In this document: piece by piece, positions 7,446 to 26,433 of the stretch
How positions within the stretch are numbered: position 1 is the stretch's first letter
Layout: the number at the start of each line of letters is the position of its first letter
NCBI GenBank assembly: GCA_964647565.1
Contig: CAZYIM010000034.1
Coordinates: 1-26,433 of the forward strand
DNA length: 26,433 bases
DNA from: an uncultured Methanosarcinales archaeon
GTDB taxonomy: Archaea; Nanobdellota; Nanobdellia; Woesearchaeales; CAZYIM01
Direction: 5' to 3'
Notes under the pieces: generated by a model
Told to the model about the DNA's origin: nothing
Database searches by the model: none
The model's input: only the letters and a program-made list of their open reading frames with translations
Program-made: the position numbers and the translations under genes

Positions 7446-7509
7446 TCCTTCTATTTTTATTACTTCGCCTAAAAAAGAACATTCACTTTTCACTAAATAG
7501 TAGTTATAT

Positions 7510-7580
7510 AAACGAAATATTTAAATATCTTTCTATGTTCCAAGAATCGGGATATCAATCTAAACTTTGAGTAAGGAGGA
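7510..7580 (+). promoter_or_regulatory. BRE-TATA promoter and SD of the ubiquitin-like operon
   Basis: AAACGAAATATTTAAATA (TATA 7520-7527), near-identical to the 7077-7091 promoter. SD AAGGAGGA at 7573-7580, 6 nt before ATG 7587. Confidence 0.75.
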
Positions 7581-7586
7581 ATTAAG

Positions 7587-8276
7587 ATGGGAACACAGGG
7601 AAAAGAAAAAGAGGTCGTTACATTTGGACGACAATATTTTGATCTTGAACGGGATACAATTCTACGCGTGGGTGCAGAAGGATCTGAGCCAAAAGAGCGT
7701 TACAGTGCCTTTATTGAAGACCAGGAACTCTTGAACGTAGGAACAGATAAAAAAAAGATTGTTACAGGAGATAATCTCTTGAATGGAACCATCGGAGATG
7801 TTCTAACTGATATGATAGAATATGTCAAGTTAGGCATGGATTATCATGCTGCAAAGACAGGTTCAGGAACTTTCAACCACAATGGCTGGATCAACACATA
7901 TACACCTGAATATGGTGGTGAAAAACTTAATACAGCTTACGACAGATGGCTAGAGTTCAAAGCAGATAAAAAGAAAAAAAGACTTTCTATCACAGGAAAA
8001 AAACAAAGGACAGAACCTGAAGAATTGGTCATGGATAACATTGGTAGATGTGAAATCTATCAGGCAGGAAGCACGGAGCCAGATTATATTGTAAATGTCA
8101 TCGATATTGTCATTGAAAAGGATTCTTCAGGCGGACCTAATAAATCTCAAATAGTTGTACCATCTTGGAAGATAGAAACACCAACGACCGAGATAGAAAC
8201 TGTTGATACAGTTCAGTATTCTAGGATTGAACGATTTGCAGGAAAAGCCTTGAAATTTCTCCTAAATAGAGAATAA
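7587..8276 (+). CDS. Candidate ubiquitin-like (beta-grasp) modifier precursor with internal Gly-Gly and a 46-aa C-terminal extension
   Basis: First gene of an operon with E2-like, JAB and E1 genes. It has a TIGDVLTDM helix start (cf. ubiquitin TIENVK) and a terminal-strand-like VIDIVIEKDSSGG (G182-G183, nt 8130-8135; cf. TLHLVLRLRGG). The fold call is inference. Confidence 0.55.
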   Translation: MGTQGKEKEVVTFGRQYFDLERDTILRVGAEGSEPKERYSAFIEDQELLNVGTDKKKIVTGDNLLNGTIGDVLTDMIEYVKLGMDYHAAKTGSGTFNHNGWINTYTPEYGGEKLNTAYDRWLEFKADKKKKRLSITGKKQRTEPEELVMDNIGRCEIYQAGSTEPDYIVNVIDIVIEKDSSGGPNKSQIVVPSWKIETPTTEIETVDTVQYSRIERFAGKALKFLLNRE

Positions 8277-8287
8277 ATATCTTTAAA

Positions 8288-9691
8288 ATGGCTAAGAAAA
8301 GTCTAGGGCCTTTGCCGGACATTGAAATTCCTGACACATACCTTACAAGGATATGTCATGGAACCACTATTCTATTTAATGGAAGAATCTGGAAAAAGGG
8401 AGACTTTGATCCAAAAGCCACAGTTAATTTTATCGATGAAGGCTCTGACAGGGTTAGTCTTATTGATCTGGAAACCTTTGCAAGATTAGAGAACAAATAC
8501 CGAAAAGATAACAATGAAGCCATCAGGGTAGCCCATCAACAGCTTATGAAGCATGACAGGGGATACACTGATATTGATCTTAATGAGCTTGAGATCCAGA
8601 CCATGCTAAAAGCATATGTGGTCGGTAATATCTTCCCAAAATGGGGACTTGGCGACAAGGATCTTGGAAGAGAGGCAAGAGGTATTCTCAAACGAGGTAC
8701 AAATGTGATTGAGGATCAGGTTGAGGATGCTAGGGAAGATACCATCTCATTTTCTAAACAAAAAACACCTGAATCAATTTATGATATGCTTAGACAGAGA
8801 AAGAGGCCTTCATTTAGGAGGGAGACCAAGAAAGCTGTTGATGTTAATGGTGAAAATGGTTTTGATAGGGACAGCATAACTATCTCTAGAAGTGCAGACA
8901 AGAGATCTTTATTGACTACAAAGGTATTGAAAGAAAAGAATATATTCATCCATTATGAAAAGCTCTACACTCTAATCAACAAGCCCTATTTTGATGAGCC
9001 TGTGATCAATTTAAGGGGAAAGCTTTTGTATCCCTATCCTGGCGTCAAAATTGGAAACAAAGATATCTACAACCTTATACAGCTTAGAAAAGCATACAAG
9101 AGAGCATTCTTAAGTCTATTTAGACAAGAGGCCCTTGATAATGATCCTTACAAGAGAAAGTTGAAACATGTCCATGGCCGGCTTGATAATGAGATTAACA
9201 GCGTTCCAGTTCAAAGACAGGGTTTCAGTTTACAGTGGGTGGGAAAAAACAAGGCATATCTTTGCAAGAATATTGATGAATTTGTTCTAAAGGAACTTAA
9301 AAGTGAAGGAAAAAGATTGCATTGGTTTGGACCTACAAAGATTGGTGTGGAATTGACCATGCATACAAGCGGTTCAATCTCACATGGAGCAGTTGTTGTC
9401 ATGGATTCCTATTATCCCTTTCCATTCCTTAATTCTAGCAATCCGAGATCTAATATCTGCACAGGAGACGGTAAGGAGATCTACTCTGATTCATCAAAAA
9501 CAGATGAACAGCAGATAGTTGGAAAGATCAATATCGGTGAACACACAATGTACAGGGGTTATCATGGAACCTTCACTCCACATTCAGAGCTCTCAAATCA
9601 AAAATACAATAAATTACATATTCATTCTCATCACAAGATAATTTCAAAAGACGAAATGGAGGCAAGAAATTTGAAGCCTTCAAATGTATAA
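8288..9691 (+). CDS. Candidate E2-like (ubiquitin-conjugating fold) protein with a long N-terminal extension
   Basis: The C-terminal region has several beta strands, then YYPFPFLNSSNPRSNICTG (Cys391, nt 9458-9460), resembling the HP...IC[LT]G catalytic region of prokaryotic E2s. It sits between the Ubl candidate and the JAB gene. Confidence 0.5.
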   Translation: MAKKSLGPLPDIEIPDTYLTRICHGTTILFNGRIWKKGDFDPKATVNFIDEGSDRVSLIDLETFARLENKYRKDNNEAIRVAHQQLMKHDRGYTDIDLNELEIQTMLKAYVVGNIFPKWGLGDKDLGREARGILKRGTNVIEDQVEDAREDTISFSKQKTPESIYDMLRQRKRPSFRRETKKAVDVNGENGFDRDSITISRSADKRSLLTTKVLKEKNIFIHYEKLYTLINKPYFDEPVINLRGKLLYPYPGVKIGNKDIYNLIQLRKAYKRAFLSLFRQEALDNDPYKRKLKHVHGRLDNEINSVPVQRQGFSLQWVGKNKAYLCKNIDEFVLKELKSEGKRLHWFGPTKIGVELTMHTSGSISHGAVVVMDSYYPFPFLNSSNPRSNICTGDGKEIYSDSSKTDEQQIVGKINIGEHTMYRGYHGTFTPHSELSNQKYNKLHIHSHHKIISKDEMEARNLKPSNV

Positions 9692-9703
9692 GGGTGAAAT
9701 AAA

Positions 9704-11119
9704 ATGAACATGCATGATATGGTTCGGGAAAAAAAGGAAGGTCAACGCACAATAATCAAACCAATTCAGTATCCTACGTTTAGGATCGATAAGCTTAGGA
9801 TCACTCCTAATGCAATGGAAAAGTTATTTCTCTATAGAGATCTACATGATGACCTAACAAGCTCAGGAGATGAGTTTTTTGGTTTCCAAATTAAGCGTTA
9901 CGACGAAAAAGTACCTGGATTATATAGCCTTACACGGGATCTTGTATTAGGTAAAGATCAGGTCAATCATGGATCTCATACTTTGGTGAGAGCTGCACAA
10001 GTACAGGAAGTCATGAGAAGCCTGCATGGGACTGGAAATGGTCCTTGCGGTTGGTGGCATAGGCATCCTGGAAGTTATAGAAGCAGTTCTGGAGAGGATT
10101 TAGGCAATAATCCTATTGTTCTTGAGGGAATACAAACTCATAACCAAGTCCTAGATTACATGATAATACCAATGGATCACATGAAATACGAACTCGAGGA
10201 TTCTGATGATGGAGCTGTGCTTATTTGCACTGACAAGAGGGATCACGGAGAGTATATCATTGATTTGCATTGTACAATAGCAGAGGCCAAGGACAAGCTA
10301 CCTGAAATGAAGAAAAAGAGAATTCCTGTAAAATTGGCATATGCCCATAGTATGATAGTTGCTGGCAAAGATCGGACACCAAATAAGGTCTACACTGAAG
10401 TTATAACCCGCCTATTCCATGGCAACGATCCTAATATCCAAGAAGAGAAGAATGGTAGAGACGGAGGCCTTAGGACCAAGATCGAAATTGTCGAGGTTCC
10501 TGATGATATTATTATTAATAAGGATACAATGGTCAATGAACTTACTGAAAATATCTATATCAAGAAATTCCATAAGCATGGAATCCATTTAAACGTAGGA
10601 CGAGTATTCGGCGATGCTATGATTCATGAACACGACAGAAATTCGGTATATAAAAGATTCCGGGGAGGTTATGAGTTTGTTCATGATCATGATGATAAGA
10701 TTAGCAAAGAGACGTGGATTGAAACTGCAAAACCCTATTTATTGGATCATTTATCACTTCAAGAAGTTAATGAATGGGAAGATAAGGTCCTGAATGAGAA
10801 AAAGATCCCTATCATCGAGAAAGTGACTAGCATTCTCAAAGATGAAAAGACTATTGCAGACAAGGTCACAGATGAAGCTGCAACAAAGGATAAAACTGTT
10901 ACAGCAGAAGATGCTGTTGTTGATAAAACCAAACCAGAATTGGGAAAAATTAATCCATTTATGAAATTTGTATATGCAATTTTCAAACCAAGCAAACTAA
11001 ATAAAAAAGATAACAAGCAACTTGCGAAGGAATACAGAGCAGATAATGGTGCCGAACCTGTCAAAGCAAAGACTGATGCAACTAAAAATGAAGACACCCC
11101 AAATAAGGGAGTAAATTAA
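9704..11119 (+). CDS. JAB/JAMM (MPN+) metalloprotease, putative deubiquitinase / Ubl-maturing enzyme
   Basis: Exact JAMM motif E57...H119-x-H121-x7-S129-x2-D132 (GDEFFGF...GWWHRHPGSYRSSSGED), preceded by the typical LRITPNAMEKL strand-helix. SD AGGGTGA. Confidence 0.88.
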   Translation: MNMHDMVREKKEGQRTIIKPIQYPTFRIDKLRITPNAMEKLFLYRDLHDDLTSSGDEFFGFQIKRYDEKVPGLYSLTRDLVLGKDQVNHGSHTLVRAAQVQEVMRSLHGTGNGPCGWWHRHPGSYRSSSGEDLGNNPIVLEGIQTHNQVLDYMIIPMDHMKYELEDSDDGAVLICTDKRDHGEYIIDLHCTIAEAKDKLPEMKKKRIPVKLAYAHSMIVAGKDRTPNKVYTEVITRLFHGNDPNIQEEKNGRDGGLRTKIEIVEVPDDIIINKDTMVNELTENIYIKKFHKHGIHLNVGRVFGDAMIHEHDRNSVYKRFRGGYEFVHDHDDKISKETWIETAKPYLLDHLSLQEVNEWEDKVLNEKKIPIIEKVTSILKDEKTIADKVTDEAATKDKTVTAEDAVVDKTKPELGKINPFMKFVYAIFKPSKLNKKDNKQLAKEYRADNGAEPVKAKTDATKNEDTPNKGVN

Positions 11120-11152
11120 GAAATAGAAATTAAAACGAGAACATAAGAAAAA

Positions 11153-12691
11153 ATGAGTGAAGATAGGTATTCAAGACAGAAAAAAATAGAAGGCTGGGAC
11201 CAGCAGATGCTGGAAGATGCCAATATAGCTATGGTAGGTGATGGGTCAGTCGCATGTTTTGGCGGAGCCTTGATGGCTGCACTGGGTATTGGAAGATCCT
11301 GTCTTTATGGTAATTCCAGATTCAAGGGATACCACCCTGATGAGTTTATGTATGCTGAACTTACCAAAGGCAAGAGAAAGGTCAGGGGACTTGAACAGAG
11401 TATGAAACAGATCAATCCAACTATTGACGTAGAAAGCTATCGTTGGGCATTTCTCAGGGACTATTTCACAGACATCTTCTCAGATAATACATCTGCCATA
11501 TTTGACACTACCAATGATCCCCGGACTGAGGCTGCCTTGTTCTCTCATGCAATGACTGCAGATGTGCCTATTGTGAATGCATCTTGTAAAAAATTCAGGG
11601 GAGAATTGTCTGTCTATATGCCTACTGGAGAATTCAAGCATCTAACCTCTTTAGATCATGAAGAAATCACAAAGGAAACACCTTATCAGCTACTATCAAG
11701 AACCTATAATACCAGAATGGAACAGGATCCTGTTACAGCCTCTTTAATTGCAGGTTTAGCAGTCGATGAGATCAGGAAGATTGTCATGCCCTTGAAATTC
11801 GAGACTGTTAAAGATCAAAACGGTAATAAGATACGGAAAAGCAAGGAGCCGACACTTGAAGGCAGGCTTATCTATGACATCCTGACAGATGATCTGGTAC
11901 ATAGGACAACTAAGTTAAAATCAGGATTTCAACGCGTATACCATCCTGGAAATTTTCAAAATGATATTGTGGCAGCAGTTGTCGGAGCAGGATCTCTTGG
12001 AAATGTTGTAAGTCTACTACTGACTATTATGGGCATTAAACATTATATATTCGACAAGGACATCTATGAGGATGCTAATGTCAACAGACAGATCATGGCA
12101 GTGCTTTACGGTAACGATGTTGGAAAAGCCAAAGCATTATCACTCGCTGAAAAAGACCAGAGGATCAATTATAGGACCAAGGTTGTTGGTGTAAATGATT
12201 GGTTTACACCAGACACCAAGTTCAAGGGCAGGCAACCAGACGTCATATTTGATTGCACCGATAAATACACAGCAATGGAGGCTATTAACTATTGGTCCAT
12301 AAAGAATAAGAAACCCGTCATCACAGGCCATACAGGACCTACAGACGGCCAGACATTTTTCTCTGATATTTATAATGGCATGGAATGTCTTGATGGAAGG
12401 ATGAATGTTATTGAAAATGCTAACATTGAACGAAATCCGGAAAGTTGCATACAGCAATCCAACCCATCTGTAATTATCGCGAACTGGATCATGGGTTCAG
12501 TCATGGTCGATCTCTTCAGGAGATATGCCATGGGTTTACCTGTTGTCAGCTCAAGAGTTAAGTATGATACTAATATTGGCAACAGATTGGCTTCATTGCC
12601 TAACACAACAATGTGCAGATACAAGGATTCTGATGATACAAAACATTACAAGAAATGCGATCACATTGATTATTGTAAATTCGAGGTTTAA
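11153..12691 (+). CDS. E1-like activating enzyme with two tandem ThiF/MoeB adenylation domains
   Basis: The N-terminal domain (DRYSRQ...GWDQQMLEDANIAMVGDGSVA) has a degenerate nucleotide loop. The second domain has intact VVGAGSLG (G278), FDKD..EDANVNRQ, GKAKA, DVIFDCTD and a candidate catalytic Cys432 in PESCIQQSNPS. Confidence 0.92.
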   Translation: MSEDRYSRQKKIEGWDQQMLEDANIAMVGDGSVACFGGALMAALGIGRSCLYGNSRFKGYHPDEFMYAELTKGKRKVRGLEQSMKQINPTIDVESYRWAFLRDYFTDIFSDNTSAIFDTTNDPRTEAALFSHAMTADVPIVNASCKKFRGELSVYMPTGEFKHLTSLDHEEITKETPYQLLSRTYNTRMEQDPVTASLIAGLAVDEIRKIVMPLKFETVKDQNGNKIRKSKEPTLEGRLIYDILTDDLVHRTTKLKSGFQRVYHPGNFQNDIVAAVVGAGSLGNVVSLLLTIMGIKHYIFDKDIYEDANVNRQIMAVLYGNDVGKAKALSLAEKDQRINYRTKVVGVNDWFTPDTKFKGRQPDVIFDCTDKYTAMEAINYWSIKNKKPVITGHTGPTDGQTFFSDIYNGMECLDGRMNVIENANIERNPESCIQQSNPSVIIANWIMGSVMVDLFRRYAMGLPVVSSRVKYDTNIGNRLASLPNTTMCRYKDSDDTKHYKKCDHIDYCKFEV

Positions 12692-12703
12692 GAGGATGGT
12701 AAA

Positions 12704-14614: not shown

Positions 14615-14626
14615 AGAGGTTGAGCT

Positions 14627-16162
14627 ATGAAAAAATTCCTTAAACAGCTGGGATGGACTGCACTCCTTGGACTTGGATTGCTTACAGGATGTTCGAGTGA
14701 TGATGAAGTTGTTGAACCTGTTGTTGTTAATCCAAAAGATGCTTCTATTAGAGAACTAGTTGAACAAGAAGAGCTTTATAATGGCCAGACTGTGCGGACT
14801 TTTGGAAAGGTCGTTGCAATTTCTGACCATGATTATATAGAAAATCTAAATCCCCAGCACGATGTTACCATAAGGATATTAAATACTTTCTTGCACAAAG
14901 TCGATCTTTTTAGGACTTATAGTCTTGAAAAAGCTGATAAAGCAGGAATTGCCAGCTTTCAATCCGGCATGCTTGATCTAGAACAACTTAAAGTAACTCG
15001 CTCATCACTATCTGCAATAGGTTTGTTCAACAATGGAAAGATCAGGTACACCAAGCTTATCTCACCATCCGGAGATATCTTGTTTGAGCGACATGATATC
15101 CAACCTCAGGAATTCAGGGGCAAGATTGTTGATCTAAACCAGATGAAGTATTCTTCTGCTGGGGGAAGTACCTATTACCAGTCAACCCTAAAGCTGAAAA
15201 AAGAAGATGATAAATTTTTTTCATTTGTATTTAATCTGGCTTCTCTTAATGCTTATAATAAATATATTAATTCCAATGTTGTAGTCAAATGCACCCAGGA
15301 ACTTATCAACAATAAATCCTTTGTTGGTGAAGAGATTGAATATATAATGCCGAAACCTCCAGAGCTAGACAAGAAAAAAAGAGCCTTTTGGCAAAAGCTG
15401 GGTGGTGCAGAGGTTAGCGCAGAGCTAAAAGAACTTTATTCTGCCATTGGAAAAGAGGAAGCCCTTTTCAAGGATATAAAGAAGCAGGACAGGGAATTGA
15501 CTTTTGGCGCTGCAATGGTCGTCTATGACGAGTCAAAAAGGATATGGGATCTTGCTGTTGCTAATAATTGCAAGGAGCTGATAGATATCAGTGTTGATCT
15601 GACCAAAGAGGCAGCTTATTCTATGGTCAACCTGAAGGAATATGGCCTTGCTGCTGAGATGTTTAAGTCAAGAGCTATGGATGAGACAGGTTATGGAGTC
15701 ATCACTTCAGGTATTTACTCATTATCTGTTGACGGCAGACATTATGATGCTGCCCGGCTTGCACAAAGTTACAGGCTTGATGATGATGTAGCAACCCAGT
15801 ATGATAAGTGCATTGACCGCCTTTTGGACAGAGCTCTTTGGGCTGAAGCCTGGGATGTGATCCAGGAAGCTAATTCAGGCTTTGAATACAGGGAAAAGAT
15901 AGCAGAAATCAAGGAAGAATTATCTGAAAAACAACAGAAGTTTGCTGTTGGCGACAGCGTCCACACTTATGTTGATTATGCTTTACAGAATAACAAGAAT
16001 GCACGGTTTTATGGGCCTTCAATCAAGGATTTTTATGGCAGGATCGTCTCATTTCCAGATATTGGCCGTGCTGAGATCAATGGATGGCATGTGACTGCCA
16101 ATGATACCACCCAGTTCAAGGGCATTGTACCTGTTGACAGGATGAAGAAAAAGAAGGATTAG
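14627..16162 (+). CDS. Putative lipoprotein (possible OB-fold N-terminal region, helical-repeat C-terminal region)
   Basis: Signal peptide MKKFLKQLGWTALLGLGLLTG-C with lipobox LTGC. SIRELVEQEELYNGQTVRTFGKVV is OB-fold-like. SD AGAGGT. Confidence 0.72.
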   Translation: MKKFLKQLGWTALLGLGLLTGCSSDDEVVEPVVVNPKDASIRELVEQEELYNGQTVRTFGKVVAISDHDYIENLNPQHDVTIRILNTFLHKVDLFRTYSLEKADKAGIASFQSGMLDLEQLKVTRSSLSAIGLFNNGKIRYTKLISPSGDILFERHDIQPQEFRGKIVDLNQMKYSSAGGSTYYQSTLKLKKEDDKFFSFVFNLASLNAYNKYINSNVVVKCTQELINNKSFVGEEIEYIMPKPPELDKKKRAFWQKLGGAEVSAELKELYSAIGKEEALFKDIKKQDRELTFGAAMVVYDESKRIWDLAVANNCKELIDISVDLTKEAAYSMVNLKEYGLAAEMFKSRAMDETGYGVITSGIYSLSVDGRHYDAARLAQSYRLDDDVATQYDKCIDRLLDRALWAEAWDVIQEANSGFEYREKIAEIKEELSEKQQKFAVGDSVHTYVDYALQNNKNARFYGPSIKDFYGRIVSFPDIGRAEINGWHVTANDTTQFKGIVPVDRMKKKKD

Positions 16163-16169
16163 ACGAGAG

Positions 16170-16207
16170 AAAAGGCAATATTTATATAGTGAAACCACTT
16201 CCAAGTG
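16170..16207 (+). promoter_or_regulatory. BRE-TATA promoter with a downstream palindrome (candidate operator)
   Basis: AAAAGGCAATATTTATATA (TATA 16181-16188), followed by inverted repeat CACTT-CC-AAGTG at 16196-16207. Confidence 0.65.
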
Positions 16208-16211
16208 ACTA

Positions 16212-16327
16212 AAAGGGGCGAGATTCATGTTCGCAGATTGGCGAAGGGATGGCTTTGGATAATATCATCCATTCCACACGACTAACAGTCGTAATAAAAA
16301 CAAACGAGATTAGGAGGAAGAATAAAA
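16212..16327 (+). promoter_or_regulatory. Long structured 5' leader (three consecutive hairpins) ending in SD AGGAGG
   Basis: Stems TTCGC/GCGAA (16230-16245), GGATG/CATCC (16247-16270) and ACGACT/AGTCGT (16278-16292). SD at 16312-16317. Confidence 0.4.
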
Positions 16328-17452
16328 ATGGCAAACAAAGATAAAGATAAAGTTCGTGATGATACTGGCAAAGAAGAAGTCAGCATTCAAGATCTCTACA
16401 GGGGTATTAACCTTGATGAGAAATTTCACGAAGCAAAACGAGATTCATCAGCAAATCTCCAAGAGATTGAAGCATCAGACAAGGCATATGAAGATGTTAC
16501 AAAGCAGCTAAGAAGTTTGGTAAAGAAAGCTAATACCTATAGGGTGAAGGCAGAAACAGGTTTTGACAAGGAAAAGGCAAAAGGAATATGGAAGCTTCTT
16601 GGGAAATTTTTTCCAAAAACAGTTGCAAAAAGGTATAAGACCCATTTCACTGATCTTCTTTTCAAGTCAATCAAGGAGATCTATGCTCTTGGAGAAACAA
16701 TTGACAACCTGATAATAGACGTAGCCAAAAAACATGGTGAATTAAGGAATTTTTCAGATACCTACCTTATGAACATGCAACAAACTGCTATTACAAACAT
16801 GAAGAAATATATGAGCGAGGTTGATAATTTCGGTAACCAACTTGAAACTTTAGAAGGAAAGCTTACTGAATTTACAACAGATGCAGAATTCAAAAGCCAA
16901 GAATACCTGAGCTTGAAGAAACAAAGGGGTATTCTCGAGGATAACCTGGACATGGCAGAGGATGGTTTAATAAGTGCAACCATAAGATTTGATGTGGCTG
17001 AAGACCATTATTACCAGTCAGTCGAATTGATGAAGAAATTCGACAACACCAAAGATGTACTCAAACCATTCAATGAGAAGGTAATGCTTAAGATGAAACT
17101 TTCTGAGAAGCTACTCCCATATAGGAGAGTGTTGGATAAGCTAGTTGATGCTGGAAGCGACATTTTCAAGCTTGATGCAGAATTTGATCAGATCATTGTT
17201 GCACATGAATTGGCTCAAAGCCAAAAGATCGAGACCTTGAGCAAGGTGATCAGCGGTGAACTGATGAATAAGACATATGAGCCTATCATCAAGGCACAAG
17301 CAGAGTCAAGCGAAAGGGTAAGGCAGATCATCATGGGCGTGCACGCACAATATGTCGAAAGTGTTAGAACTGGAGATAGGGAGAAAAACTATATTAAGAC
17401 CATGGATGAAATTAAGCGCGGCGAATCTCCTGCCCAGCAGACTGAGAAATAA
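16328..17452 (+). CDS. Long coiled-coil protein (TelA/PspA-like architecture; family uncertain)
   Basis: Almost wholly helical, heptad-rich 374-aa sequence with an amphipathic segment KGIWKLLGKFFPK. It has its own promoter, a strong SD and a terminator. Confidence 0.65.
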   Translation: MANKDKDKVRDDTGKEEVSIQDLYRGINLDEKFHEAKRDSSANLQEIEASDKAYEDVTKQLRSLVKKANTYRVKAETGFDKEKAKGIWKLLGKFFPKTVAKRYKTHFTDLLFKSIKEIYALGETIDNLIIDVAKKHGELRNFSDTYLMNMQQTAITNMKKYMSEVDNFGNQLETLEGKLTEFTTDAEFKSQEYLSLKKQRGILEDNLDMAEDGLISATIRFDVAEDHYYQSVELMKKFDNTKDVLKPFNEKVMLKMKLSEKLLPYRRVLDKLVDAGSDIFKLDAEFDQIIVAHELAQSQKIETLSKVISGELMNKTYEPIIKAQAESSERVRQIIMGVHAQYVESVRTGDREKNYIKTMDEIKRGESPAQQTEK

Positions 17453-17464
17453 TAATCGAAAAAA

Positions 17465-17500
17465 GAGACTCGATAAGAGTCTCATTTTTTTCTTTTTTTT
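17465..17500 (+). terminator. Intrinsic terminator (hairpin plus long T tract)
   Basis: Perfect 7-bp stem GAGACTC-GATAA-GAGTCTC (17465-17483), followed by ATTTTTTTCTTTTTTTT. Confidence 0.8.
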
Positions 17501-17503: not shown

Positions 17504-18703
17504 ATGAACAGATCTATTTTAGAGATTGAAGGAAACATTGTAAAACACGTAAAAAAAGAGATTTACTTAGAGAAGCTGCTATTAGCCATCTCAGAGATAA
17601 ACAATAATTTGAAAAAAGAGGACGCCGAATTCTACAAGAATAATATTTTTTTTAATGAAAGAGTCATTGATTATCTGGAGTTCTTTCGCTTGGCATCTTT
17701 AGAGAACAAAATTAAAGGCGGCAATCACTATGAGTTGTTAATAAGCCCTTCAAATGGATTTCCTGTCTGGGGAGAGACAGTTCGCCTCAGTAAACAACTA
17801 GAACGGGGTAAATCCAAACTTGAACAGACCATCAGAGAAAACATGATTAAATATCACACAGGAGAGGGTAAGGAATACAACGCAGAAAATTTCCTTGATG
17901 CAATCGCCCTGGAAGGAGTCAGAACCATGTTGATGGGCGGAAAAGCTTATCTCCAAAGGACAGCACTTAGAGACTTTTTGCATTATACTCGCTTATTGAA
18001 GATAACAGACAAGGAGAATGATTCTGAAGAGAACAAATTCCTGTTAGACATGTTCAACGATGATGCCACCGTCAGATCTGAAATCATGAGCAAGTCTGGA
18101 GACAAAGGGGTCTATAAATTTAATTTCTATAAGCTGCACAAGACTGACTTTTTATGGACTTATATGACTGTCACATTAGGATATCAGCAGCCAAAAGGCT
18201 CAATCATAAACCGTTCATTGATTGAGGAAAAATCCGACGGAAGCTGGCTACCCAAAGGAGATCTGTTCGATGCATTTGAACATGGCGTAGTCCATGATTT
18301 TTCCCTTCGATCACTATATAAACAACTATGCACAGTAAAGAATGTCCAGCCTTTAAGTATGGCCTTCTACACCTTAGGCCCGTTCTATCATCCGGAGGGT
18401 ATCAAGACTGCAGAATTGAACAGACTATTCACCAATAGACCTGATGCATTCATGCTAATGTATGCATGCGAGGCCCTTGGCAATGATCCTGATCATATAA
18501 TAGATGGAAAGGAATTCTACAAGGAATACCAGACCAAATACACAATTGCAACAACATCTGATGTCGGAATCGACTTCAGCGAGATGTTCGGAGCAAACAG
18601 TGTTGTTGATGTTACTGAAATTCATCCTATAAAGGTAGATCAGATCATTAACAGATATAAAAATTCAAATCCTCGATTTGGAAAAGAATTGGAGAGTGAA
18701 TAA
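17504..18703 (+). CDS. Hypothetical protein (AAA-ATPase-associated)
   Basis: 399-aa ORF ending 2 nt before the AAA gene. Motifs SNGFPVW and YTLGPFY recall, from memory, the uncharacterised gene preceding related AAA ATPases in bacteria. Confidence 0.7.
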   Translation: MNRSILEIEGNIVKHVKKEIYLEKLLLAISEINNNLKKEDAEFYKNNIFFNERVIDYLEFFRLASLENKIKGGNHYELLISPSNGFPVWGETVRLSKQLERGKSKLEQTIRENMIKYHTGEGKEYNAENFLDAIALEGVRTMLMGGKAYLQRTALRDFLHYTRLLKITDKENDSEENKFLLDMFNDDATVRSEIMSKSGDKGVYKFNFYKLHKTDFLWTYMTVTLGYQQPKGSIINRSLIEEKSDGSWLPKGDLFDAFEHGVVHDFSLRSLYKQLCTVKNVQPLSMAFYTLGPFYHPEGIKTAELNRLFTNRPDAFMLMYACEALGNDPDHIIDGKEFYKEYQTKYTIATTSDVGIDFSEMFGANSVVDVTEIHPIKVDQIINRYKNSNPRFGKELESE

Positions 18704-18705
18704 TA

Positions 18706-20481: not shown

Positions 20482-20482
20482 G

Positions 20483-22213
20483 ATGGATGATATCAGAAAA
20501 CTGATCGAAAAGAGACTAAGGGACAAGGTTAGAAAGCCTTTGCCTGATGATCCAACTAGTCCTCCGCCTGAAGAAGTTCAGGAATCAGAATCAAGCGAAC
20601 TTTATCCGCCTATAATAGGATCTGGAAGTGTAACAGCTTCATCTATTCGGGATTTGATCGAACAAAGAAACCGGGAACGTCATGGCATTGGTTCTCGACA
20701 AACTGGTTCTCAAACTAGACAGACCGGACCAGTAGAGCATCACGGCAGCGGTATGCTGGATAACATTAGGAACAGGAAGAAAAAGAAGTTCGATGCAACC
20801 AGGAAAAAGCGTAGCAATCCTTCGGAACTCTTAAGATCCAGCCATACATTGAAACTTCATGAATTAACCGGAAGCAAAGCAGAGGCTTATACCAATATAT
20901 TAAAAGAGATTGGAGCTTATCAGGATATTGTCAAGAAAGAGCCTAGTTTTGATTTTTCTCATTATGAGGTTGACAAGGGAGGCTGTGATAGGAGAATAAT
21001 GGAGATCGCACCTGATTATCTTGATAATCATATCGTCATTGTTACGCCGCACCAGAAAAACATGGATATTATTCGGAACAATTATTCATTCTTAGATCCT
21101 TTGCTTGAAGCCATCATGAATGGTGCTGCTAAAGAGACTATTGCAAGGATTGCCCCTCACGAACCATTATATGGGGAACTTAAATCAGGATTAGTAAATC
21201 TAATCGAACAATTAAATTTTGGAGCCAATCACATTGTTGATGAGGATTTTTTCTCAGTCACTTTATCACTTGACACACCAAAAAAAGCGATAAAGAAAAT
21301 GGTTGAGATCCAGAAGGATGTAAGCAAGATCCTTGACCAGGATAATGATGGAGTGCTTCAACTTCTGAATTACGATCTTGAGGATAAGATTGCATCTGCT
21401 TCTGCAGAGCTCAATGCAACTTATGTGAATATTACACCATTTATCCTTGGTGATGCAAGTGAGTTCATAGTTCAGGACATCTTCCCATTACAGCTAGAGA
21501 CCAGCTCATACAAGTTTTCAACTGATGAAATAGACATCTATAGTTTCAAGACCAATAAATATGTTTTTATATATTTTGACAAAGGGGAAGACACAGTAGA
21601 TAACAAGAACATAGATATCCGCAACTTTGTTGTCATAAATGGCAATGATCCAGACAACCTTCTAGCGTATCTAAGGGACTTGAAGTTCATTGATTATAAT
21701 TTCAATCAATTCTTTGTTGAAGAAAAGATGCAGCATATTGAGGCAAGGGACTTTGAAAGGTATAAACGTACTCAAATATCAGGATTAGCAGATGAAATTG
21801 ATAAGCTTGGCCAGGATAAAGATCATCATTCCGAACTCTATCATCAACTCAAAAAGGTTCATGATGATATTGCAAAAGATAATATTGGCAATGAAACCGA
21901 CTATCTTAAGACACTCCCTTTACAGGTCAAGATGCAGTTGATGTTTCCACGGGTAGACGATCCATTAGTTTATGAGATATTATCCAATGTAAATAAAAAC
22001 GAGATGTTGATGACATATTCATGGGATACTTCTAAGTTCAAGTTGCAATTTGCTGCTGCAAAGCCCAAACAGCAAAAAGAGATGCTGCAGGAAGTGCTTG
22101 AAGGCATCAAATACGAAGATCAGTATAATCTTGCTGTCAATGAGTGGCTGCATGACAACTACAAACCTCTTTGCGACGAACTTAAAGTAAAGTTTAAGGG
22201 TGGTGAGCAATGA
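20483..22213 (+). CDS. Hypothetical protein, DUF6638-like core with a disordered N-terminus
   Basis: Starts 1 nt after the AAA stop, with ~115 low-complexity residues. The following AEAYTNILKEIG...HYEVDKGG...DYLDNHIVIVTPHQK...YGEL resembles my recollection of the DUF6638 N-terminal pattern (unverified). Confidence 0.55.
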   Translation: MDDIRKLIEKRLRDKVRKPLPDDPTSPPPEEVQESESSELYPPIIGSGSVTASSIRDLIEQRNRERHGIGSRQTGSQTRQTGPVEHHGSGMLDNIRNRKKKKFDATRKKRSNPSELLRSSHTLKLHELTGSKAEAYTNILKEIGAYQDIVKKEPSFDFSHYEVDKGGCDRRIMEIAPDYLDNHIVIVTPHQKNMDIIRNNYSFLDPLLEAIMNGAAKETIARIAPHEPLYGELKSGLVNLIEQLNFGANHIVDEDFFSVTLSLDTPKKAIKKMVEIQKDVSKILDQDNDGVLQLLNYDLEDKIASASAELNATYVNITPFILGDASEFIVQDIFPLQLETSSYKFSTDEIDIYSFKTNKYVFIYFDKGEDTVDNKNIDIRNFVVINGNDPDNLLAYLRDLKFIDYNFNQFFVEEKMQHIEARDFERYKRTQISGLADEIDKLGQDKDHHSELYHQLKKVHDDIAKDNIGNETDYLKTLPLQVKMQLMFPRVDDPLVYEILSNVNKNEMLMTYSWDTSKFKLQFAAAKPKQQKEMLQEVLEGIKYEDQYNLAVNEWLHDNYKPLCDELKVKFKGGEQ

Positions 22214-23088
22214 GAAGAGGCAGAAGCACGATTGGTTTTGAATTGACGCTATCTGTTTTAGTTTTAGGATTAGTTGGAGCCGTTCTTTGGCCCAAAATAA
22301 GTGAAAAAAAAAAGCAAAATACAATAGCTGAGAAAGTAAGATCTGCAAAGCAGGTCACTAGAGTGGTCAAGCAGCATGAATCTTCATATGCAATCTCAGA
22401 TGCCAAGTTGCTCAATGTCAATGAGGGTGTTGTTGACTTCAAGACTAAAGAAGGCAAGCCAGGAAGCAGGATGTACAAGTTATGCATATTTCAAACTGAT
22501 AATGATCCTAAATATTTCCTTCTTCCAGCACCTCAAGCTTTAGCACCGATGAAAAAATATGTTATTCAATATAACAACATATATAGGGTCTCAGATTTTA
22601 CGACAGAACGGTTTGTTAACCAGCATATTAACTCTACCTACATCACAGAAAGTGATAAGATTATTGATCCTCAACTTGACGGCGTTATAACCAATCTAGA
22701 CCTTAATGAAAAAACATGTACAAACTCATTGGCTACAGAGGCCACTAAACATCTGCCTGCAGCAAAATTCCTCTACTCTACCAACGATATGATCAAGTAT
22801 TATGATGAAGAAGGGAATACAGGCACACATTTCTACCAGCTTTGTACTTTTCAGATAGGCAACCAGATCACTGAGCTGTTGAATCCTAATCATAAAGCAT
22901 TATGGCCAAACAGGATGTATGAAATCGAGATCGATGAGGTTCATAAAAATCCGCAAACATTCACAACAGGTAACCTCGCATTGATGTATGCGTCTAATAA
23001 ACTTGTAAAAGTTGTAGATAACAGATTAATCGATCCAAACCTGGATGGCGTAATCAAGGATATAAAAATGGTCGGGGTTCTACGATGA
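22210..23088 (+). CDS. Membrane-anchored protein with two copies of the array domain (paralog 1)
   Basis: N-terminal TM helix, then two repeats: AKLLNV...YKLCIF...LLP...IIDPQLDGVI and AKFLYS...YQLCTF...LLNP...LIDPNLDGVI. ATGA overlap with the upstream gene. Confidence 0.85.
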   Translation: MRRGRSTIGFELTLSVLVLGLVGAVLWPKISEKKKQNTIAEKVRSAKQVTRVVKQHESSYAISDAKLLNVNEGVVDFKTKEGKPGSRMYKLCIFQTDNDPKYFLLPAPQALAPMKKYVIQYNNIYRVSDFTTERFVNQHINSTYITESDKIIDPQLDGVITNLDLNEKTCTNSLATEATKHLPAAKFLYSTNDMIKYYDEEGNTGTHFYQLCTFQIGNQITELLNPNHKALWPNRMYEIEIDEVHKNPQTFTTGNLALMYASNKLVKVVDNRLIDPNLDGVIKDIKMVGVLR

Positions 23089-23675
23089 TGAGCCCCATGA
23101 TACGAAGAGGTTTAAAAGTAGCAGGAATTTTTGCTGGACTTTTTTTCGTTGGAGCCATGATAGTTGACATCGCTGATAGTTTCAAAAACAACAATACTGC
23201 AATAGCCAATAATGCACAACCAACTGCTCAAGAAGATTCTCTTGCAAGAGCTGTGGATGATACTAGCACAGGTTATGTAGATAGGATTGTTCGAATGATA
23301 CCTCCTCAAGCTGAGGTTTCATTAGAAGAGAACATACCTACTGCAAAGCTTATATCAGTACAAGATGATATTGTCTCTTTCTATAATCCAGATGATAGAC
23401 AAAGTAGTTACAGGGGAACCAGGCTGATCAAACATTGCTCATTCCAGGTTGGAACTGAGATAAGGGAATATTTGATGCCATCTGGCAAGGCATTGATACC
23501 TATGCGGATGTATGAACTCGATGTTGAGAAGCTGGAAAAACCAGAGGAATACACTGCAATAATGTTTGTCCAAAGATTTCTTCATGAAGATTACAGCTCA
23601 AGAGACAAGCGTGTCATTGATAAGAATCTTGATGGGATTATCTTAGATTATAAGCTTCTGGAGGGTCCAAAATGA
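23085..23675 (+). CDS. Membrane-anchored array paralog 2
   Basis: N-terminal TM helix and IPTAKLISV...CSF...YLMP...VIDKNLDGII. ATGA overlap. Confidence 0.85.
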   Translation: MMSPMIRRGLKVAGIFAGLFFVGAMIVDIADSFKNNNTAIANNAQPTAQEDSLARAVDDTSTGYVDRIVRMIPPQAEVSLEENIPTAKLISVQDDIVSFYNPDDRQSSYRGTRLIKHCSFQVGTEIREYLMPSGKALIPMRMYELDVEKLEKPEEYTAIMFVQRFLHEDYSSRDKRVIDKNLDGIILDYKLLEGPK

Positions 23676-24172
23676 ACAAACTGGCAACAGGATTGATGAT
23701 AGCAATGATGGGAATTACTCTTGGATACGCTCAAACTGAAGCCCTTGCAAGTTTACCAATTCAAGAAAAGGCTGCAAAAGAAGAAAAAAAGCCGGCGCTT
23801 GATAACATACCTGCTGCAAAGCTATTGGCAGTCAATCAGGATAATTTCATACTCTATCTAAAGGAGGATCATCGTGTTAGTGCAAGTAGGAATTTTCAAC
23901 TTTGTTCATTTTTAGTAGGAACAGAGATAAGGGAATATCTTTTACCTACTGTCAAGGCCTTAGTACCCATGAAGATGTATCAGCTTGAGATCAAGATAAT
24001 CAATAATGCAAAGAATTACAAAACAAGCAATCTTGCTACAGAAGGTCTCAATATTGATAGCTGGGAACTTAAAGATAATCGAGTAATTGACAAGAACCTT
24101 GACGGAATAATCATGGATTACAAACTTCTGAGAGGTCCAAAATGAGAAGGCTAGCAACTGGACTATTGATAT
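23612..24172 (+). repeat. Degenerate ~90-bp direct repeat spanning gene junctions 2/3 and 3/4
   Basis: GTCATTGATAAGAATCTTGATGGGATTATCTTAGATTATAAGCTTCTGGAGGGTCCAAAATGAACAAACTGGCAACAGG (from 23612) versus GTAATTGACAAGAACCTTGACGGAATAATCATGGATTACAAACTTCTGAGAGGTCCAAAATGAGAAGGCTAGCAACTGG (from about 24083). Confidence 0.8.
23672..24145 (+). CDS. Secreted array paralog 3
   Basis: Signal peptide MNKLATGLMIAMMGITLGYA (no lipobox Cys) and IPAAKLLAV...FQLCSF...YLLP...VIDKNLDGII. ATGA overlap. Confidence 0.85.
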   Translation: MNKLATGLMIAMMGITLGYAQTEALASLPIQEKAAKEEKKPALDNIPAAKLLAVNQDNFILYLKEDHRVSASRNFQLCSFLVGTEIREYLLPTVKALVPMKMYQLEIKIINNAKNYKTSNLATEGLNIDSWELKDNRVIDKNLDGIIMDYKLLRGPK

Positions 24173-24732
24173 CAACGATAGGACTGGGTCTTGGATGTCA
24201 GATAGACACAGATAATTCTTACGAGGATACATTCGCTCCTGTTGCCACTGAAGAAAAAGTTGAACCCACACCTGCTGAAAAGTTAGAAGAAAAAAGAAGC
24301 AAAGAAAGCGTAAAAAAAGAAGATGGTTCTGTTATGTTTATCAATACTAAGGAAGAATACACAATTGATGATATTGCAGAATCAAGTATCATAGATTTAC
24401 CTGGCGCAAAGTTAAATGGCTTTACCATTGACAATGTGGATTACTTATGGTGGATGACTACCGATCCTACAGGACACAGGAGATACCAAATGGTTGAGTT
24501 TCAGCTTGCAGAAGGTCCAACGCTTCTATTGTTGCCAAATGTTAAGCATCTAAATCCTCAAACAAGATATGACATTTCATATAAAAGATTACACGAGGAT
24601 GTCAAGCTAGACAAATATCTCTTTACAAGGATTTTCATCAACACAATATACACCTGCCTTGACAACCAACCAATGGATGAAAGCATCAAAGGCATTGTCA
24701 CCAGTATCAAACCAGTGGAGGGACTGAAATGA
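24142..24732 (+). CDS. Lipoprotein array paralog 4
   Basis: Lipobox GLGC and LPGAKLNGF...YQMVEF...LLLP...MDESIKGIV. ATGA overlap. Confidence 0.85.
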   Translation: MRRLATGLLISTIGLGLGCQIDTDNSYEDTFAPVATEEKVEPTPAEKLEEKRSKESVKKEDGSVMFINTKEEYTIDDIAESSIIDLPGAKLNGFTIDNVDYLWWMTTDPTGHRRYQMVEFQLAEGPTLLLLPNVKHLNPQTRYDISYKRLHEDVKLDKYLFTRIFINTIYTCLDNQPMDESIKGIVTSIKPVEGLK

Positions 24733-25229
24733 GAGCACTGGCAACAACTATGCTGGCAACAATGCTTAGTTTTTATGCAATGAGTTGCAGCACTCAAAAA
24801 AAAGAAGATAACGCCATCCCACCTTTGCCACCTATTGCTGCAGTGGCTGAATTAGACACTGTTTCAATTCCAGGAGCTAAACTCAGCTGGTACAACGATG
24901 GTTCAGCAGAATACATTCATGGAGATAGAAGTGGTAATACAAGCTACGGATTCAGCTCTTCAAGAGACTATCAACTATGTGACTTTGACATAGGTGGCAA
25001 GGATGTCAAGCTCTTGGCACCAAGAGTATACCAGATCACACCACAAAAACGCTATGATATCCAATACCTGCCGATGAAAGAGGGTCAATACCTGAACATA
25101 AAGAAATTCATCCATCTATTTGTCAGGAATGACAATATGGAAGATGTCAGGGTTCCTGATAATCATGAGATGGACAGGGACATAAGAGGCATACTTATCG
25201 ATATAAAACCAATGGAGAACATAAAATGA
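24729..25229 (+). CDS. Lipoprotein array paralog 5
   Basis: Lipobox AMSC and IPGAKLSWY...YQLCDF...LLAP...MDRDIRGIL. ATGA overlap. Confidence 0.85.
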   Translation: MRALATTMLATMLSFYAMSCSTQKKEDNAIPPLPPIAAVAELDTVSIPGAKLSWYNDGSAEYIHGDRSGNTSYGFSSSRDYQLCDFDIGGKDVKLLAPRVYQITPQKRYDIQYLPMKEGQYLNIKKFIHLFVRNDNMEDVRVPDNHEMDRDIRGILIDIKPMENIK

Positions 25230-25745
25230 ACTGGAAAAAAGGATTAATAATACCAGTGATAGGATTGACACTTCTAAGTTGTGCTTCTGATGAAAAGATT
25301 GAGCCAGAAAAGATGGAAAAGACATCCACGATCAGCTTAATAGAACAGAATATTGAAAAGGTACCATCTGCAAAACTGATTTCTGTTAATGATGGTTATG
25401 CAAATTATGCGTTTACAAAATCTAGTGGCGCATACCAAGGATTTGGTTATGGGAATTTTAGGCATTATCAATTATGTACGTTTTTAACTGCTCCCAATAA
25501 AATCGAAGCTTTGTTGCTGCCTGAATCTAGAGCATTGATGATCAATTCTAGATACAATTTAAACTATAAGAAATTAAAAAATCCTTCAACATTCACTGTT
25601 GAACAATTTGTCCATAGTTATGTCAGCAATACATTCACTGTTTTTGACAAGATAGAACTGATAGATCCAAATCTGGATGGAATTATAACCAACTTAAAAC
25701 CAATAAGGTAAAAGAAATGAACTGGAAAAAAGGATTAATAATACC
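25224..25745 (+). repeat. 31-bp exact direct repeat covering the start of paralogs 6 and 7
   Basis: AAATGAACTGGAAAAAAGGATTAATAATACC at 25224-25254 and 25715-25745. Confidence 0.9.
25226..25711 (+). CDS. Lipoprotein array paralog 6
   Basis: Lipobox LLSC and VPSAKLISV...YQLCTF...LLLP...LIDPNLDGII. ATGA overlap. Confidence 0.85.
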   Translation: MNWKKGLIIPVIGLTLLSCASDEKIEPEKMEKTSTISLIEQNIEKVPSAKLISVNDGYANYAFTKSSGAYQGFGYGNFRHYQLCTFLTAPNKIEALLLPESRALMINSRYNLNYKKLKNPSTFTVEQFVHSYVSNTFTVFDKIELIDPNLDGIITNLKPIR

Positions 25746-26199
25746 GTTAATCGGATTGAGCCTCTTGGCATGTGGTAAACAGGAACATATATTACCAGAA
25801 AAAAGGGGTCAAGCAAGTATCAGTACTATAGTAGTCAATGAGCAGATAAATGTTCCAAGAGCCAGGCTGCTCGGCGTAACAGATGGATTTGCAGGTTATA
25901 CATTTTCATATGGATCTGACTCAGATGATGAAAGTTTCGGCTACAGTCCCTTTATGCATTACCAGATGCCAACCTTCCTAATCGGCGATGAAAAGGTCTC
26001 GTTTTTGATACCCAATCCCGAACCTCTAGTGCCTAACTCAATCTATGAGTTTGAATACCAAAGGCTTTTGCCGAATAATCCTTTAATGTCAGAAGAGTTA
26101 ATCAAAGTCTATGTAGATAAGTCCTTTGACACACTTCACAACTATAAGCTTAGTGATAAACTAGTCGGCATAATCAATTATATAAAACCAATAATGTGA
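25717..26199 (+). CDS. Lipoprotein array paralog 7
   Basis: Lipobox LLAC and VPRARLLGV...YQMPTF...FLIP...LSDKLVGII. Confidence 0.85.
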   Translation: MNWKKGLIIPLIGLSLLACGKQEHILPEKRGQASISTIVVNEQINVPRARLLGVTDGFAGYTFSYGSDSDDESFGYSPFMHYQMPTFLIGDEKVSFLIPNPEPLVPNSIYEFEYQRLLPNNPLMSEELIKVYVDKSFDTLHNYKLSDKLVGIINYIKPIM

Positions 26200-26204
26200 A
26201 ACAA

Positions 26205-26433
26205 ATGAAATGGAAAACAGCATTAATGATACCCGTGATGGCAACTTTTTTAGCCTGCGGCGGTCAGAGGCATGTTGAACCTGAAGAAAAGGGAAAAGCA
26301 AGTATCAGCACTATTGCCATTGATGAACTTGTTAATATTCCAAGAGCAAAACTGCTTAGTGTAACAGATGGATACGCTGGCTACACATTTGCACATGAAG
26401 AAGGTGAAGATGCAACATACAGTTTCAGCCCAT
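26205..26433 (+). CDS. Lipoprotein array paralog 8 (3'-truncated; absent from the ORF track)
   Basis: Manual translation: MKWKTALMIPVMATFLACGGQRHVEPEEKGKASISTIAIDELVNIPRAKLLSVTDGYAGYTFAHEEGEDATYSFSP. Lipobox FLAC; close to paralog 7. Confidence 0.85.
   Translation, partial: MKWKTALMIPVMATFLACGGQRHVEPEEKGKASISTIAIDELVNIPRAKLLSVTDGYAGYTFAHEEGEDATYSFSP

Follow-up and report, generated by a model that had tools for sequence, protein, structure and literature searches.

Contig CAZYIM010000034.1, a stretch of 26,433 bp from an uncultured archaeon, raises the question of whether a ubiquitin-like (Ubl) conjugation cassette, an AAA ATPase module and a tandem array of predicted surface lipoproteins, which follow one another on its forward strand, form one system or only share a neighborhood. 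We analyzed this contig over its whole length and refer to it as the window. A preliminary description of the same DNA had proposed that the three parts make up a single system, and it had named, as the outcome that would speak against this, that the unit with the cassette (unit 1, 7587–16162) and the unit with the AAA module (unit 2, 16328–26432) are unlinked in related genomes. From the gene neighborhoods of relatives we find that the answer depends on the kind of cassette. The one-system idea is supported for a rare subtype that carries a transmembrane (TM) protein with tetratricopeptide repeats (TPR), and outside this subtype the Ubl and AAA families are mostly independent. We lean, by a modest measure, toward the view that units 1 and 2 act in one pathway, as a composite envelope-linked system built of two recurring operons.

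Recurrence of the neighborhood in relatives

Our wide survey covered 201 genomes of the order, and the counts for the TM-TPR protein and for the family of the protein encoded from 20483 (the 20483-like family) cover 401 genomes. A gene for the TM-TPR protein is present in 5 of the 401, namely G000 (the genome of the window), G012, G320, G501 and G478, and in 5/5 it directly follows a cassette encoding Ubl, an E2-like protein (E2L), a JAB protease and E1. The module of coiled-coil protein, a partner that we call X, AAA ATPase and 20483-like protein adjoins this cassette in tandem in G000 and divergently in G320 (44% GC) and G501 (63% GC). Paralog arrays are found at 4/5 TM-TPR loci.

The genome of G320 is a single contig of 1.16 Mb. 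Its plus strand encodes a Ubl-like protein (205 aa, ending ...KGGR), E2L, JAB, E1, a 249-aa TM protein, the TM-TPR protein and a 135-aa open reading frame (ORF), after which housekeeping genes follow, and its minus strand encodes a 428-aa coiled-coil protein, X, AAA and the 20483-like protein, followed by about 10 tandem lipobox paralogs ending ...DGHVDGIIELGAVEYISPGE. The orthologs match those of the window at 3.3e-60 (E1), 3.4e-30 (AAA) and 1.2e-35 (20483-like), and hhalign relates the paralogs to the window array over the C-terminal 60 columns (68.9% probability, E 4.5e-5). The locus of G501 has the divergent layout of G320, with a 641-aa coiled-coil protein after the 20483-like gene and 4–5 small TM paralogs after the TM-TPR gene. 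In the closest relative, G012 (E1 39% identical), the genes for Ubl, E2L, JAB, E1 and TM-TPR are followed, until the contig stops, by small TM paralogs numbering at least 5; beside the cassette lies a divergent gene for a 434-aa coiled-coil protein, and an AAA gene (33% identical) is paired with a 20483-like gene on a 4-kb contig. The contig of G478 ends 1.2 kb beyond E2L.

Orthologs have therefore stayed together through an operon inversion, a 20-point shift in GC content and the turnover of their arrays, which is a classic sign of a functional unit, and because the combination recurs, rearranged, in distant relatives, its parts probably work together. Thus, the coupling of Ubl, AAA and surface array that had been proposed for the whole locus is supported for the subtype, on the neighborhoods of G320 and G501, and does not extend to the families at large. 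Conversely, the suggestion that the units are unlinked in relatives fails for the TM-TPR subtype and describes most of the loci elsewhere.

The conjugation cassette, the AAA module and the array

Table 1. Positions of genes and sequence signals in the window.
Feature	Position	Strand	Basis or remark
Ordinary genes: uvrB end, purA, guaB, metallophosphoesterase, flavodoxin-like reductase	bases 1–7000		
CACTAATAAGT motif, 17 nt upstream of TATA-like TTTAAATA (7084–7091), before ORF 7116	7057..7067	+	read from sequence
109-aa ORF, co-oriented, possibly leaderless	7116..7445	+	no family match, no relative in fetched loci
CACTAAATAGT motif, 3 nt upstream of TATA-like TTATATAA (7504–7511)	7491..7501	+	read from sequence
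Ubl-like precursor, 229 aa, core ending ...IDIVIEKDSSGG(183), then 46-aa tail	7587..8276	+	first cassette position, aligned GG
E2-like protein (E2L), 467 aa	8288..9691	+	alignment of 13, AlphaFold2 model, UBC-like fold matches
JAB/JAMM metalloprotease, 471 aa, motif HRHPGSYRSSSGED, long C-terminal extension	9704..11119	+	PADLOC JAB 8.3e-5
E1, 512 aa, two ThiF-like domains	11153..12691	+	Pfam ThiF 3e-36, 2 stretches
TM-TPR protein, 636 aa	12704..14614	+	weak YfiO/TPR/YbgF matches; orthologs in G012, G320, G501, G478
Predicted lipoprotein, 511 aa, lipobox LLTGC, weak Slp-like start	14627..16162	+	seen in G000 only
TATA-like TTTATATA (16181–16188), then perfect palindrome CACTTCCAAGTG (16196–16207), in 165-nt gap	16181..16207	+	read from sequence
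Coiled-coil protein, 374 aa, first gene of the module	16328..17452	+	weak tropomyosin-type match
Hairpin GAGACTC-gataa-GAGTCTC, 7-bp stem, then T7 run, between coiled-coil gene and X	17465..17490	+	
Partner X, 399 aa, directly upstream of AAA	17504..18703	+	hhalign to X family
Single-domain classic AAA ATPase, 591 aa	18706..20481	+	Pfam AAA 1.6e-7
576-aa protein (20483-like family), downstream signature partner of AAA clade	20483..22213	+	no Pfam match, named relatives 'hypothetical'
Paralog array, 8 genes, last (26196) cut by contig end	22210..26432	+	translations, profile, hhalign

The cassette genes for Ubl, E2, the JAB deubiquitinase (DUB) and E1 (starts 7587, 8288, 9704 and 11153; Table 1) are spaced by 11–33 nt in one operon-like run, and the order Ubl-E2-JAB-E1, or one near it, is kept in most of the related loci that we fetched. 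An alignment of 11 relatives of the E1 retains GxGxxG and NxNRQ in the second half only. The C-terminal domain of the window E1 reads GAGSLGN...NVNRQ, the active type, and its N-terminal ThiF-like domain, without NxNRQ, is of the inactive type. The closest entries in PDB to the E1 family profile are eukaryotic Uba1 (1e-33, 2 stretches) and SUMO E1, followed by MoeB, ThiF, BubCD and Cap2. The metal-binding motif of the JAB protein, HxH...SxxD, is intact. In G012, the closest E1 ortholog (G012:C16, 5,926–7,380) is broken in frame by one TAG and one TAA, which may reflect a decaying cassette, a sequencing error or recoding.

The GG of the Ubl-like protein is invariant in 4/4 proteins from TM-TPR-type cassettes and is preceded by a hydrophobic strand pattern. 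Across 18 cassette-first proteins, a Gly or GG is aligned near the C-terminus in most, with 0–14 residues beyond it and 46 in the window. The AlphaFold2 model has a pLDDT of 53.5, its confident part being a helical hairpin and four strands, and the Ubl profile met nothing in PDB below E 0.26. In E2L, Cys391 is invariant within Ile390-Cys391 in the 13 aligned relatives and lies about 12 residues past a YxHPF-type motif (PFPF in the window). Searches with E2L gave no match in Pfam, NCBIfam or PDB sequences and nothing in Foldseek at E <= 0.001. Structure comparison of its model (pLDDT 73) with VIA-align gave UBC, UEV and RWD folds in most of the top 50 rows (Z 4–5.7 over 100–140 residues), among them repeatedly UFC1, Ubc13, E2-25K, Pex4, Tsg101, Spc24/25, the Cap2 E2 domain and the Bub complex. 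We assign an E2-like (UBC-like) fold to the C-terminal part of E2L with moderate confidence on the basis of these matches.

The E2L profile matches 44/201 genomes of the order, with up to 5 matches in one genome, and the cassette occurs in sister orders as well. A search with the single E1 protein against genome contigs gave no match, two queries against the IMG/VR viral contigs found no relative, a metagenome scan for related loci returned one contig of 2.4 kb, and word-indexed protein searches returned 5 and 2 proteins, all unnamed or 'hypothetical'. In the genome of the window there is a second cassette, which lacks the TM-TPR gene (G000:C9, about 62,000–71,500) and consists of a 221-aa first gene, E2L, JAB and a tandem E1, followed by genes for a 1243-aa protein and a B12-binding radical SAM protein. 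Cassettes without TM-TPR are often trailed by 1–4 large (770–1070 aa) unannotated proteins of one loose family, as in loci L020 (G012:C14), L024 (G004:C88), L057, L058, L063 and L069; these may be another class of cargo or targets, served by the same conjugation machinery.

The TM-TPR protein is laid out as a cytosolic N-domain, a single TM helix at about residues 190–210 and an outer TPR/BamD-like part (weak matches).

The AAA family profile finds VAT/Cdc48/p97 as its best matches in PDB (1e-40), and both D1 and D2 of VAT match the single domain of the family. The AAA homology of the window protein forms one stretch, residues 281–417, and the two-domain (D1, D2) layout of Cdc48 is absent. In its Walker A motif, GPSGCGKT, the residues G287, G289 and K290 are invariant in the family alignment; in the second region of homology, N403 (sensor-1 Asn) and R414 (arginine finger) are invariant and D408 and A410 nearly so. 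The Walker B motif departs from that of VAT, with a family consensus of v-d-D-i-D against I-D-E-I-D: the catalytic Glu is replaced by Asp355, and the window sequence additionally has Pro in place of the Walker B Asp. As a single sequence, the window AAA weakly matches spastin (3.5e-5). Pfam gave no match to Snf7, PspA or MIT domains in 16328–17452 or 18706–20481.

A gene for a protein of 320–480 aa precedes the AAA gene in most complete loci fetched, and coiled-coil genes stand in the equivalent position in G320, G501 and G012. When the window coiled-coil protein, X, Ubl and arrays were compared by hhalign with small family alignments, all comparisons were insignificant; enlarged profiles gave E 5.6e-4 for X (304 colinear columns) and E 8.7e-3 for the coiled-coil protein. 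Neither the divergent gene of G012 (434 aa) nor a 231-aa gene of G478 matches the coiled-coil family, and their equivalence is judged from position, composition and a G[IV]W..FP-like patch identified by eye. A candidate kinship of 16328–17452 with small winged helix-turn-helix proteins, which had come from single-sequence HMM iteration, was rejected, as phmmer gave no such match. The 20483-like family is found in 19/401 genomes, and its remaining strong members sit in a variant with an MCM-like partner set.

A second AAA module of the same family lies at G000:C9 1–9,846, 66 kb from the second cassette, in the order Mrr-like fragment, 329-aa partner, AAA, 584-aa protein, 764-aa protein, 303-aa protein matching PP2C and Ser/Thr kinase, the last matching PADLOC mad6 at 1.5e-22. 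This is one of two further fixed contexts of the AAA gene: in one, an Mrr-like domain, a P-loop protein, PP2C and a kinase accompany it, and in the other an MCM/ChlI-like AAA+ protein and two unknown proteins.

The array opens with a start codon that overlaps the stop of 20483..22213. Its genes start at 22210 (a two-domain copy), 23085, 23672, 24142, 24729, 25226, 25717 and 26196, and each product combines an N-terminal signal anchor or lipobox with a C-domain of about 110 aa ending D.NLDGII.DIKP, the copies being 26–39% identical to the first. Lipoboxes (LGLGC, AMSC, LLSC, LLAC) are read in at least 4 of the 8 genes, and the 22210 and 23085 copies have anchors of the uncleaved type. We predict that the array products and the product of 14627 are exported lipoproteins. 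The array resumes at one end of contig C41 (9 copies, most with ...AC), one further copy lies on C8, and the profile has 17 matches in G000. Contig C41 also carries six tandem paralogs of about 250 aa (G000:C41 1–4,459) with no Pfam match and no TM segment, which are another lineage-specific expansion.

A possible pathway and its rivals

The gene layout is observed, as are the conserved GG and Cys, the export signals and the neighborhood that recurs, and E1, JAB and AAA are assigned to families. From these we infer as follows how the proteins bind, what is tagged, that tagging comes before the AAA step, and what the system is for. The JAB protease would trim the tail of the Ubl-like precursor and expose its GG, the single-chain E1, with one inactive and one active adenylation domain, would activate the Ubl, and the E2-like protein would take it on Cys391. 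The TM-TPR protein would tie the cassette to the membrane, with its N-domain in the cytoplasm and its TPR part facing outward, and conjugation would take place there, with lipoprotein precursors as acceptors or else the cytosolic domains that the TM-TPR protein and the small TM proteins present. The Cdc48/VAT-like AAA, together with the coiled-coil protein, X and the 20483-like protein, might then read, remodel or extract the tagged proteins. The exported paralog array would be the client or sensor side, and the outcome could be control of the surface lipoprotein repertoire or a response to an envelope signal (virus, host contact).

How far such a coupling reaches beyond the subtype can be judged from the wide survey. 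Its E2L and AAA tallies include the unpublished genomes G111, G120, G131 and G182, and the locus-level claims use none of these. With a family-specific cut that we set at E <= 1e-30 (weaker matches, present in 198/201 genomes, cover the generic AAA core only), the AAA profile identifies 51 places in 45/201 genomes. Both families are present in 14 genomes, E2L being found in 14/45 AAA-positive against 30/156 AAA-negative genomes, a mild excess. Loci selected by E1 or E2L have an AAA of the family nearby in 4/38 cases (the window, G021:C6, G012:C13 and G320:C1), and one further locus has a weakly scoring AAA (G055:C57). The AAA gene and the Ubl cassette lie in one co-directional string in G012:C13, G021:C6, G061:C23, G075:C9 and G126:C23, the two families being 13 kb apart within a 28-kb string in the last. 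In a tree of the AAA family (19/21 family rows, 2 fragments excluded), three cassette-linked AAAs form one clade (99/97) and the window AAA falls elsewhere; the association needs at least two origins or losses.

These data bear on the simplest alternative, that cassette, AAA module and array are three independent neighbors in a variable region, brought together by chance or within a genomic island. The merely mild co-occurrence counts in its favor, as do the presence of the window lipoprotein family in just 1/201 genomes, the 66 kb that separate the second cassette and second AAA module on C9, and the likely internal promoter between the units (see below). However, the same E1, AAA, 20483-like and TM-TPR orthologs are neighbors again in G320, and the same families in G501, despite the inversion and the GC difference; all TM-TPR genes lie at cassettes; and the five co-directional strings listed above add tight linkage in other families. 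By a rough estimate, well under one chance adjacency is expected in 14 co-occurring genomes of about 1.3 Mb. The neighborhood data therefore weaken chance adjacency, and we consider it unlikely.

A number of results nevertheless weigh against joint action of the two units. With respect to linkage, 34/38 Ubl loci have no AAA of the family, loci selected by AAA are mostly unlinked (15/18 without E2L; E2L nearby in 2/18, G061:C23 and G075:C9), and 12/13 loci selected by the 20483-like family lack E2L. At least seven genomes (G004, G021, G167, G179, G423, G530 and G534) carry the 4-gene AAA core with an MCM/ChlI-like AAA+ set instead. The complete composite is found in three genomes only, the array families of G012 and G501 have no detectable relation to that of the window, and the gene calls in relatives come from a custom ORF script with one miscall in the GC-rich G501. 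With respect to the proteins, the fold matches of the E2-like protein are weak (Z at most 5.7), and no beta-grasp is among the structure matches listed for the low-confidence Ubl model. Because the canonical Walker B glutamate is missing, the AAA may hydrolyze ATP poorly, and the family may act as a slow switch rather than as a motor. Finally, the lipoproteins are predicted to be exported, and the E1 reaction depends on ATP in the cytosol; lipoproteins would therefore have to be tagged before export, or tagging would be confined to cytosolic parts of TM proteins.

A different question is what purpose the machinery serves, and here a Bil-type defense role has to be taken seriously as a rival, one that is compatible with coupling of the units. 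As far as the available text of the reports goes, BilABCD has the gene order Ubl, E2, DUB, E1 (Chambers et al., 10.1101/2023.09.26.559546), its E1 is a single chain with two adenylation domains, of which one is inactive and one active, its Ubl carries a conserved Gly and a short, non-conserved removable tail (10.1101/2023.09.26.559546), and the system protects bacteria from phage (10.1101/2023.09.04.556158). The window cassette resembles the Type I and II systems, so far as these texts describe them, in gene order (Ubl-E2-JAB-E1), in its two-domain single-chain E1 and in a Ubl with Gly and tail. It differs in its archaeal host; in an E2-like protein that measures about 450 aa, is extended far at its N-terminus and shows no CEHH-type spacing; in a Ubl of 140–230 aa with a helical hairpin in the low-confidence model; and in the TM-TPR protein, AAA module and paralog arrays of the subtype. 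Solved Bil proteins gave no sequence-level match among the matches listed.

On such an antiviral or conflict reading, the Ubl would be placed onto invader proteins, the AAA would be a co-selected second defense or a regulator, the array would be unrelated and fast-evolving, and the linkage would reflect joint selection in a defense island. Besides the likeness to phage-protective BilABCD, the patchy and multi-copy distribution of the cassettes accords with it, and the AAA core swaps partner modules in the manner of conflict systems. The sister AAA modules, with their Mrr-like nuclease domain, PP2C and mad6-like Ser/Thr kinase, resemble MADS, the methylation-associated defense system, by weak or generic matches and within the accessible part of its description. 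The window AAA itself matches mad8 weakly (6.4e-4), no other window gene matched mad1-8, and, unlike MADS, the window has no methyltransferase, OLD-type nuclease, kinase or phosphatase genes. Against a defense role, the TM-TPR protein and membrane-anchored paralogs are fixed companions of the cassette subtype and point to the envelope; PADLOC matched neither the array nor Ubl, E2L, X and the 20483-like protein; the two IMG/VR queries found no relative; and no virus target can be named. We regard this reading as possible and somewhat doubtful.

Other archaea also offer points of comparison. Ub-like operons of Caldiarchaeum and Asgard archaea encode E1, E2, a RING E3 and an Rpn11-type DUB, and the SAMP/UbaA system is a further case of E1-dependent Ubl modification with a JAB protease in archaea. 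The window shares the E1-dependent Ubl and the JAB protease with these; its E2 and Ubl are far more divergent, and the membrane and AAA genes that accompany them are new. Pfam and NCBIfam detected no RING E3 or other RING gene in the block and no Ufd1/Npl4, UBX or proteasome gene, and the NCBIfam SAMP E1 model reached only 53 bits, with its cut-off at 450.

Among the substrates of Cdc48 are ubiquitylated membrane proteins, and a specific form of the one-pathway reading would resemble endoplasmic-reticulum-associated degradation (ERAD): a membrane-docked cassette would tag membrane proteins or lipoprotein precursors, and the Cdc48-like AAA with its cofactors would extract or remodel them. The 1e-40 match of the AAA profile, the Uba1-like E1 and the linkage of tagging, AAA and membrane genes are points of likeness with ubiquitin and Cdc48/p97 in ERAD and with archaeal VAT. 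Unlike Cdc48 and VAT, the window AAA has one AAA domain, an x-D Walker B and N-terminal 250 aa without an assigned fold. We hold this specific form to be improbable. If true, it would mean that a DPANN archaeon edits which adhesin-like lipoproteins it displays to its host, and that the partnership of ubiquitin and Cdc48 has a forerunner in archaea other than the Asgard lineage.

Tandem families of surface lipoproteins are known from wall-less or host-bound bacteria, as in Vlp/Vsa of Mycoplasma and the paralogs of Borrelia. The window array is likened to these by its layout, in which small, diverged lipoprotein paralogs form a long tandem row, and by its occurrence in an organism that has a small genome and probably depends on a host; unlike them, it shows translational coupling to an AAA module.

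Cassettes with the full set of E1, E2, Ubl and DUB have been described in bacteria, as Bil, and in a small number of archaea that are close to eukaryotes. The E2L distribution indicates that small-genome archaea commonly carry a divergent cassette, one whose single-chain E1 is Uba1-like. If its coupling to the AAA module in the TM-TPR subtype is real, it would offer a simple system of about 10 proteins in which to study how AAA unfoldases came to recognize Ubl tags, and a clue to the way in which DPANN cells control the surface with which they hold their hosts. A full-text literature search, with subscription journals and bioRxiv supplements outside its reach, found no published description of the system.

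Regulatory signals and the surrounding contig

The window is the whole of its contig, labelled G000:C34, which breaks off within the last gene. The genome (2.68 Mb, 86 contigs, 87% complete) encodes TBP and ribosomal protein L31e, both of which were matched in archaeal control genomes only, its guaB is 58% identical to the nearest one found in named genomes, that of a Candidatus Woesearchaeota archaeon, and the host is probably a DPANN-type (Woesearchaeota-like) archaeon. Relatives of the same GTDB order have genomes of 0.6–2.3 Mb and span >130 families. Plus-strand ORFs start at 7587, 8288, 9704, 11153, 12704, 14627, 16328, 17504, 18706 and 20483 and at the eight array positions, and they make up a co-oriented run of 18 genes that begins at 7587 and reaches the end of the contig, or 19 when the 109-aa ORF at 7116 is included. 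Spacing is 1–51 nt or overlapping throughout, with the exception of the 165-nt gap at 16163–16327. Pfam, NCBIfam and PADLOC matched no housekeeping family among the 18 genes, their matches in the block being limited to ThiF/E1, JAB, AAA and weak TPR/Slp, and housekeeping genes lie upstream of 7000. The run of at least 18 consecutive co-oriented genes without a housekeeping gene that the preliminary description reported is thereby confirmed.

The same description had the block driven by two promoters that share the motif CACT-N4-AGT. We find this motif in three upstream regions (7057, 7491 and 16196); in the first two it precedes the TATA-like box, and in the third it comes after the box and before the expected start. 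It has 9 matches in the window against 2.6 expected (0/100 shuffles reached 9), a density of 0.34 per kb against 0.084 per kb genome-wide (4-fold), and it is absent from the second cassette and the second AAA module, both on C9, and from the orthologous G320 locus. The shared motif is thus real and local, the promoters themselves are putative, and the motif may be the site of a local regulator; a system-wide site is not supported.

Since the genome is archaeal, promoters are to be read as TATA/BRE elements. A sigma-70 scan gave 59 sites against 57 in shuffles, and this model is inapplicable to an archaeon and the scan therefore uninformative. The sequence GGAGG stands ahead of the ATG at 7587. 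The 165-nt gap contains no T-run terminator and likely holds an internal promoter. The hairpin after the coiled-coil gene is a possible partial terminator, through which the coiled-coil transcript could be more abundant than the rest of the operon. In G320, the divergent intergenic region between the two operons (L053 8,818–8,831) has a palindrome, AAGTTCCAGAACTT, beside a TATATTTAAA box; it has TTCCA in common with the window palindrome CACTTCCAAGTG, and the half-sites differ.

The junction of units 1 and 2 is bridged without differences by 948-nt contigs from two public runs, possibly the source samples (15393–16340). In two runs, X3 and X4, one contig per run matches the window from 7499 and from 17491 onward, preceded by 245–255 unlike bases. 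The points of divergence lie at the 7491 motif and just past the hairpin at 17465–17483, and these contigs may represent a second context of the blocks in a co-occurring strain. Among the ordinary genes at the start of the contig, the adenylosuccinate synthetase (519–2060) has 513 aa, and its Pfam match spans residues 19–509 against a 416-position model, which implies inserts.

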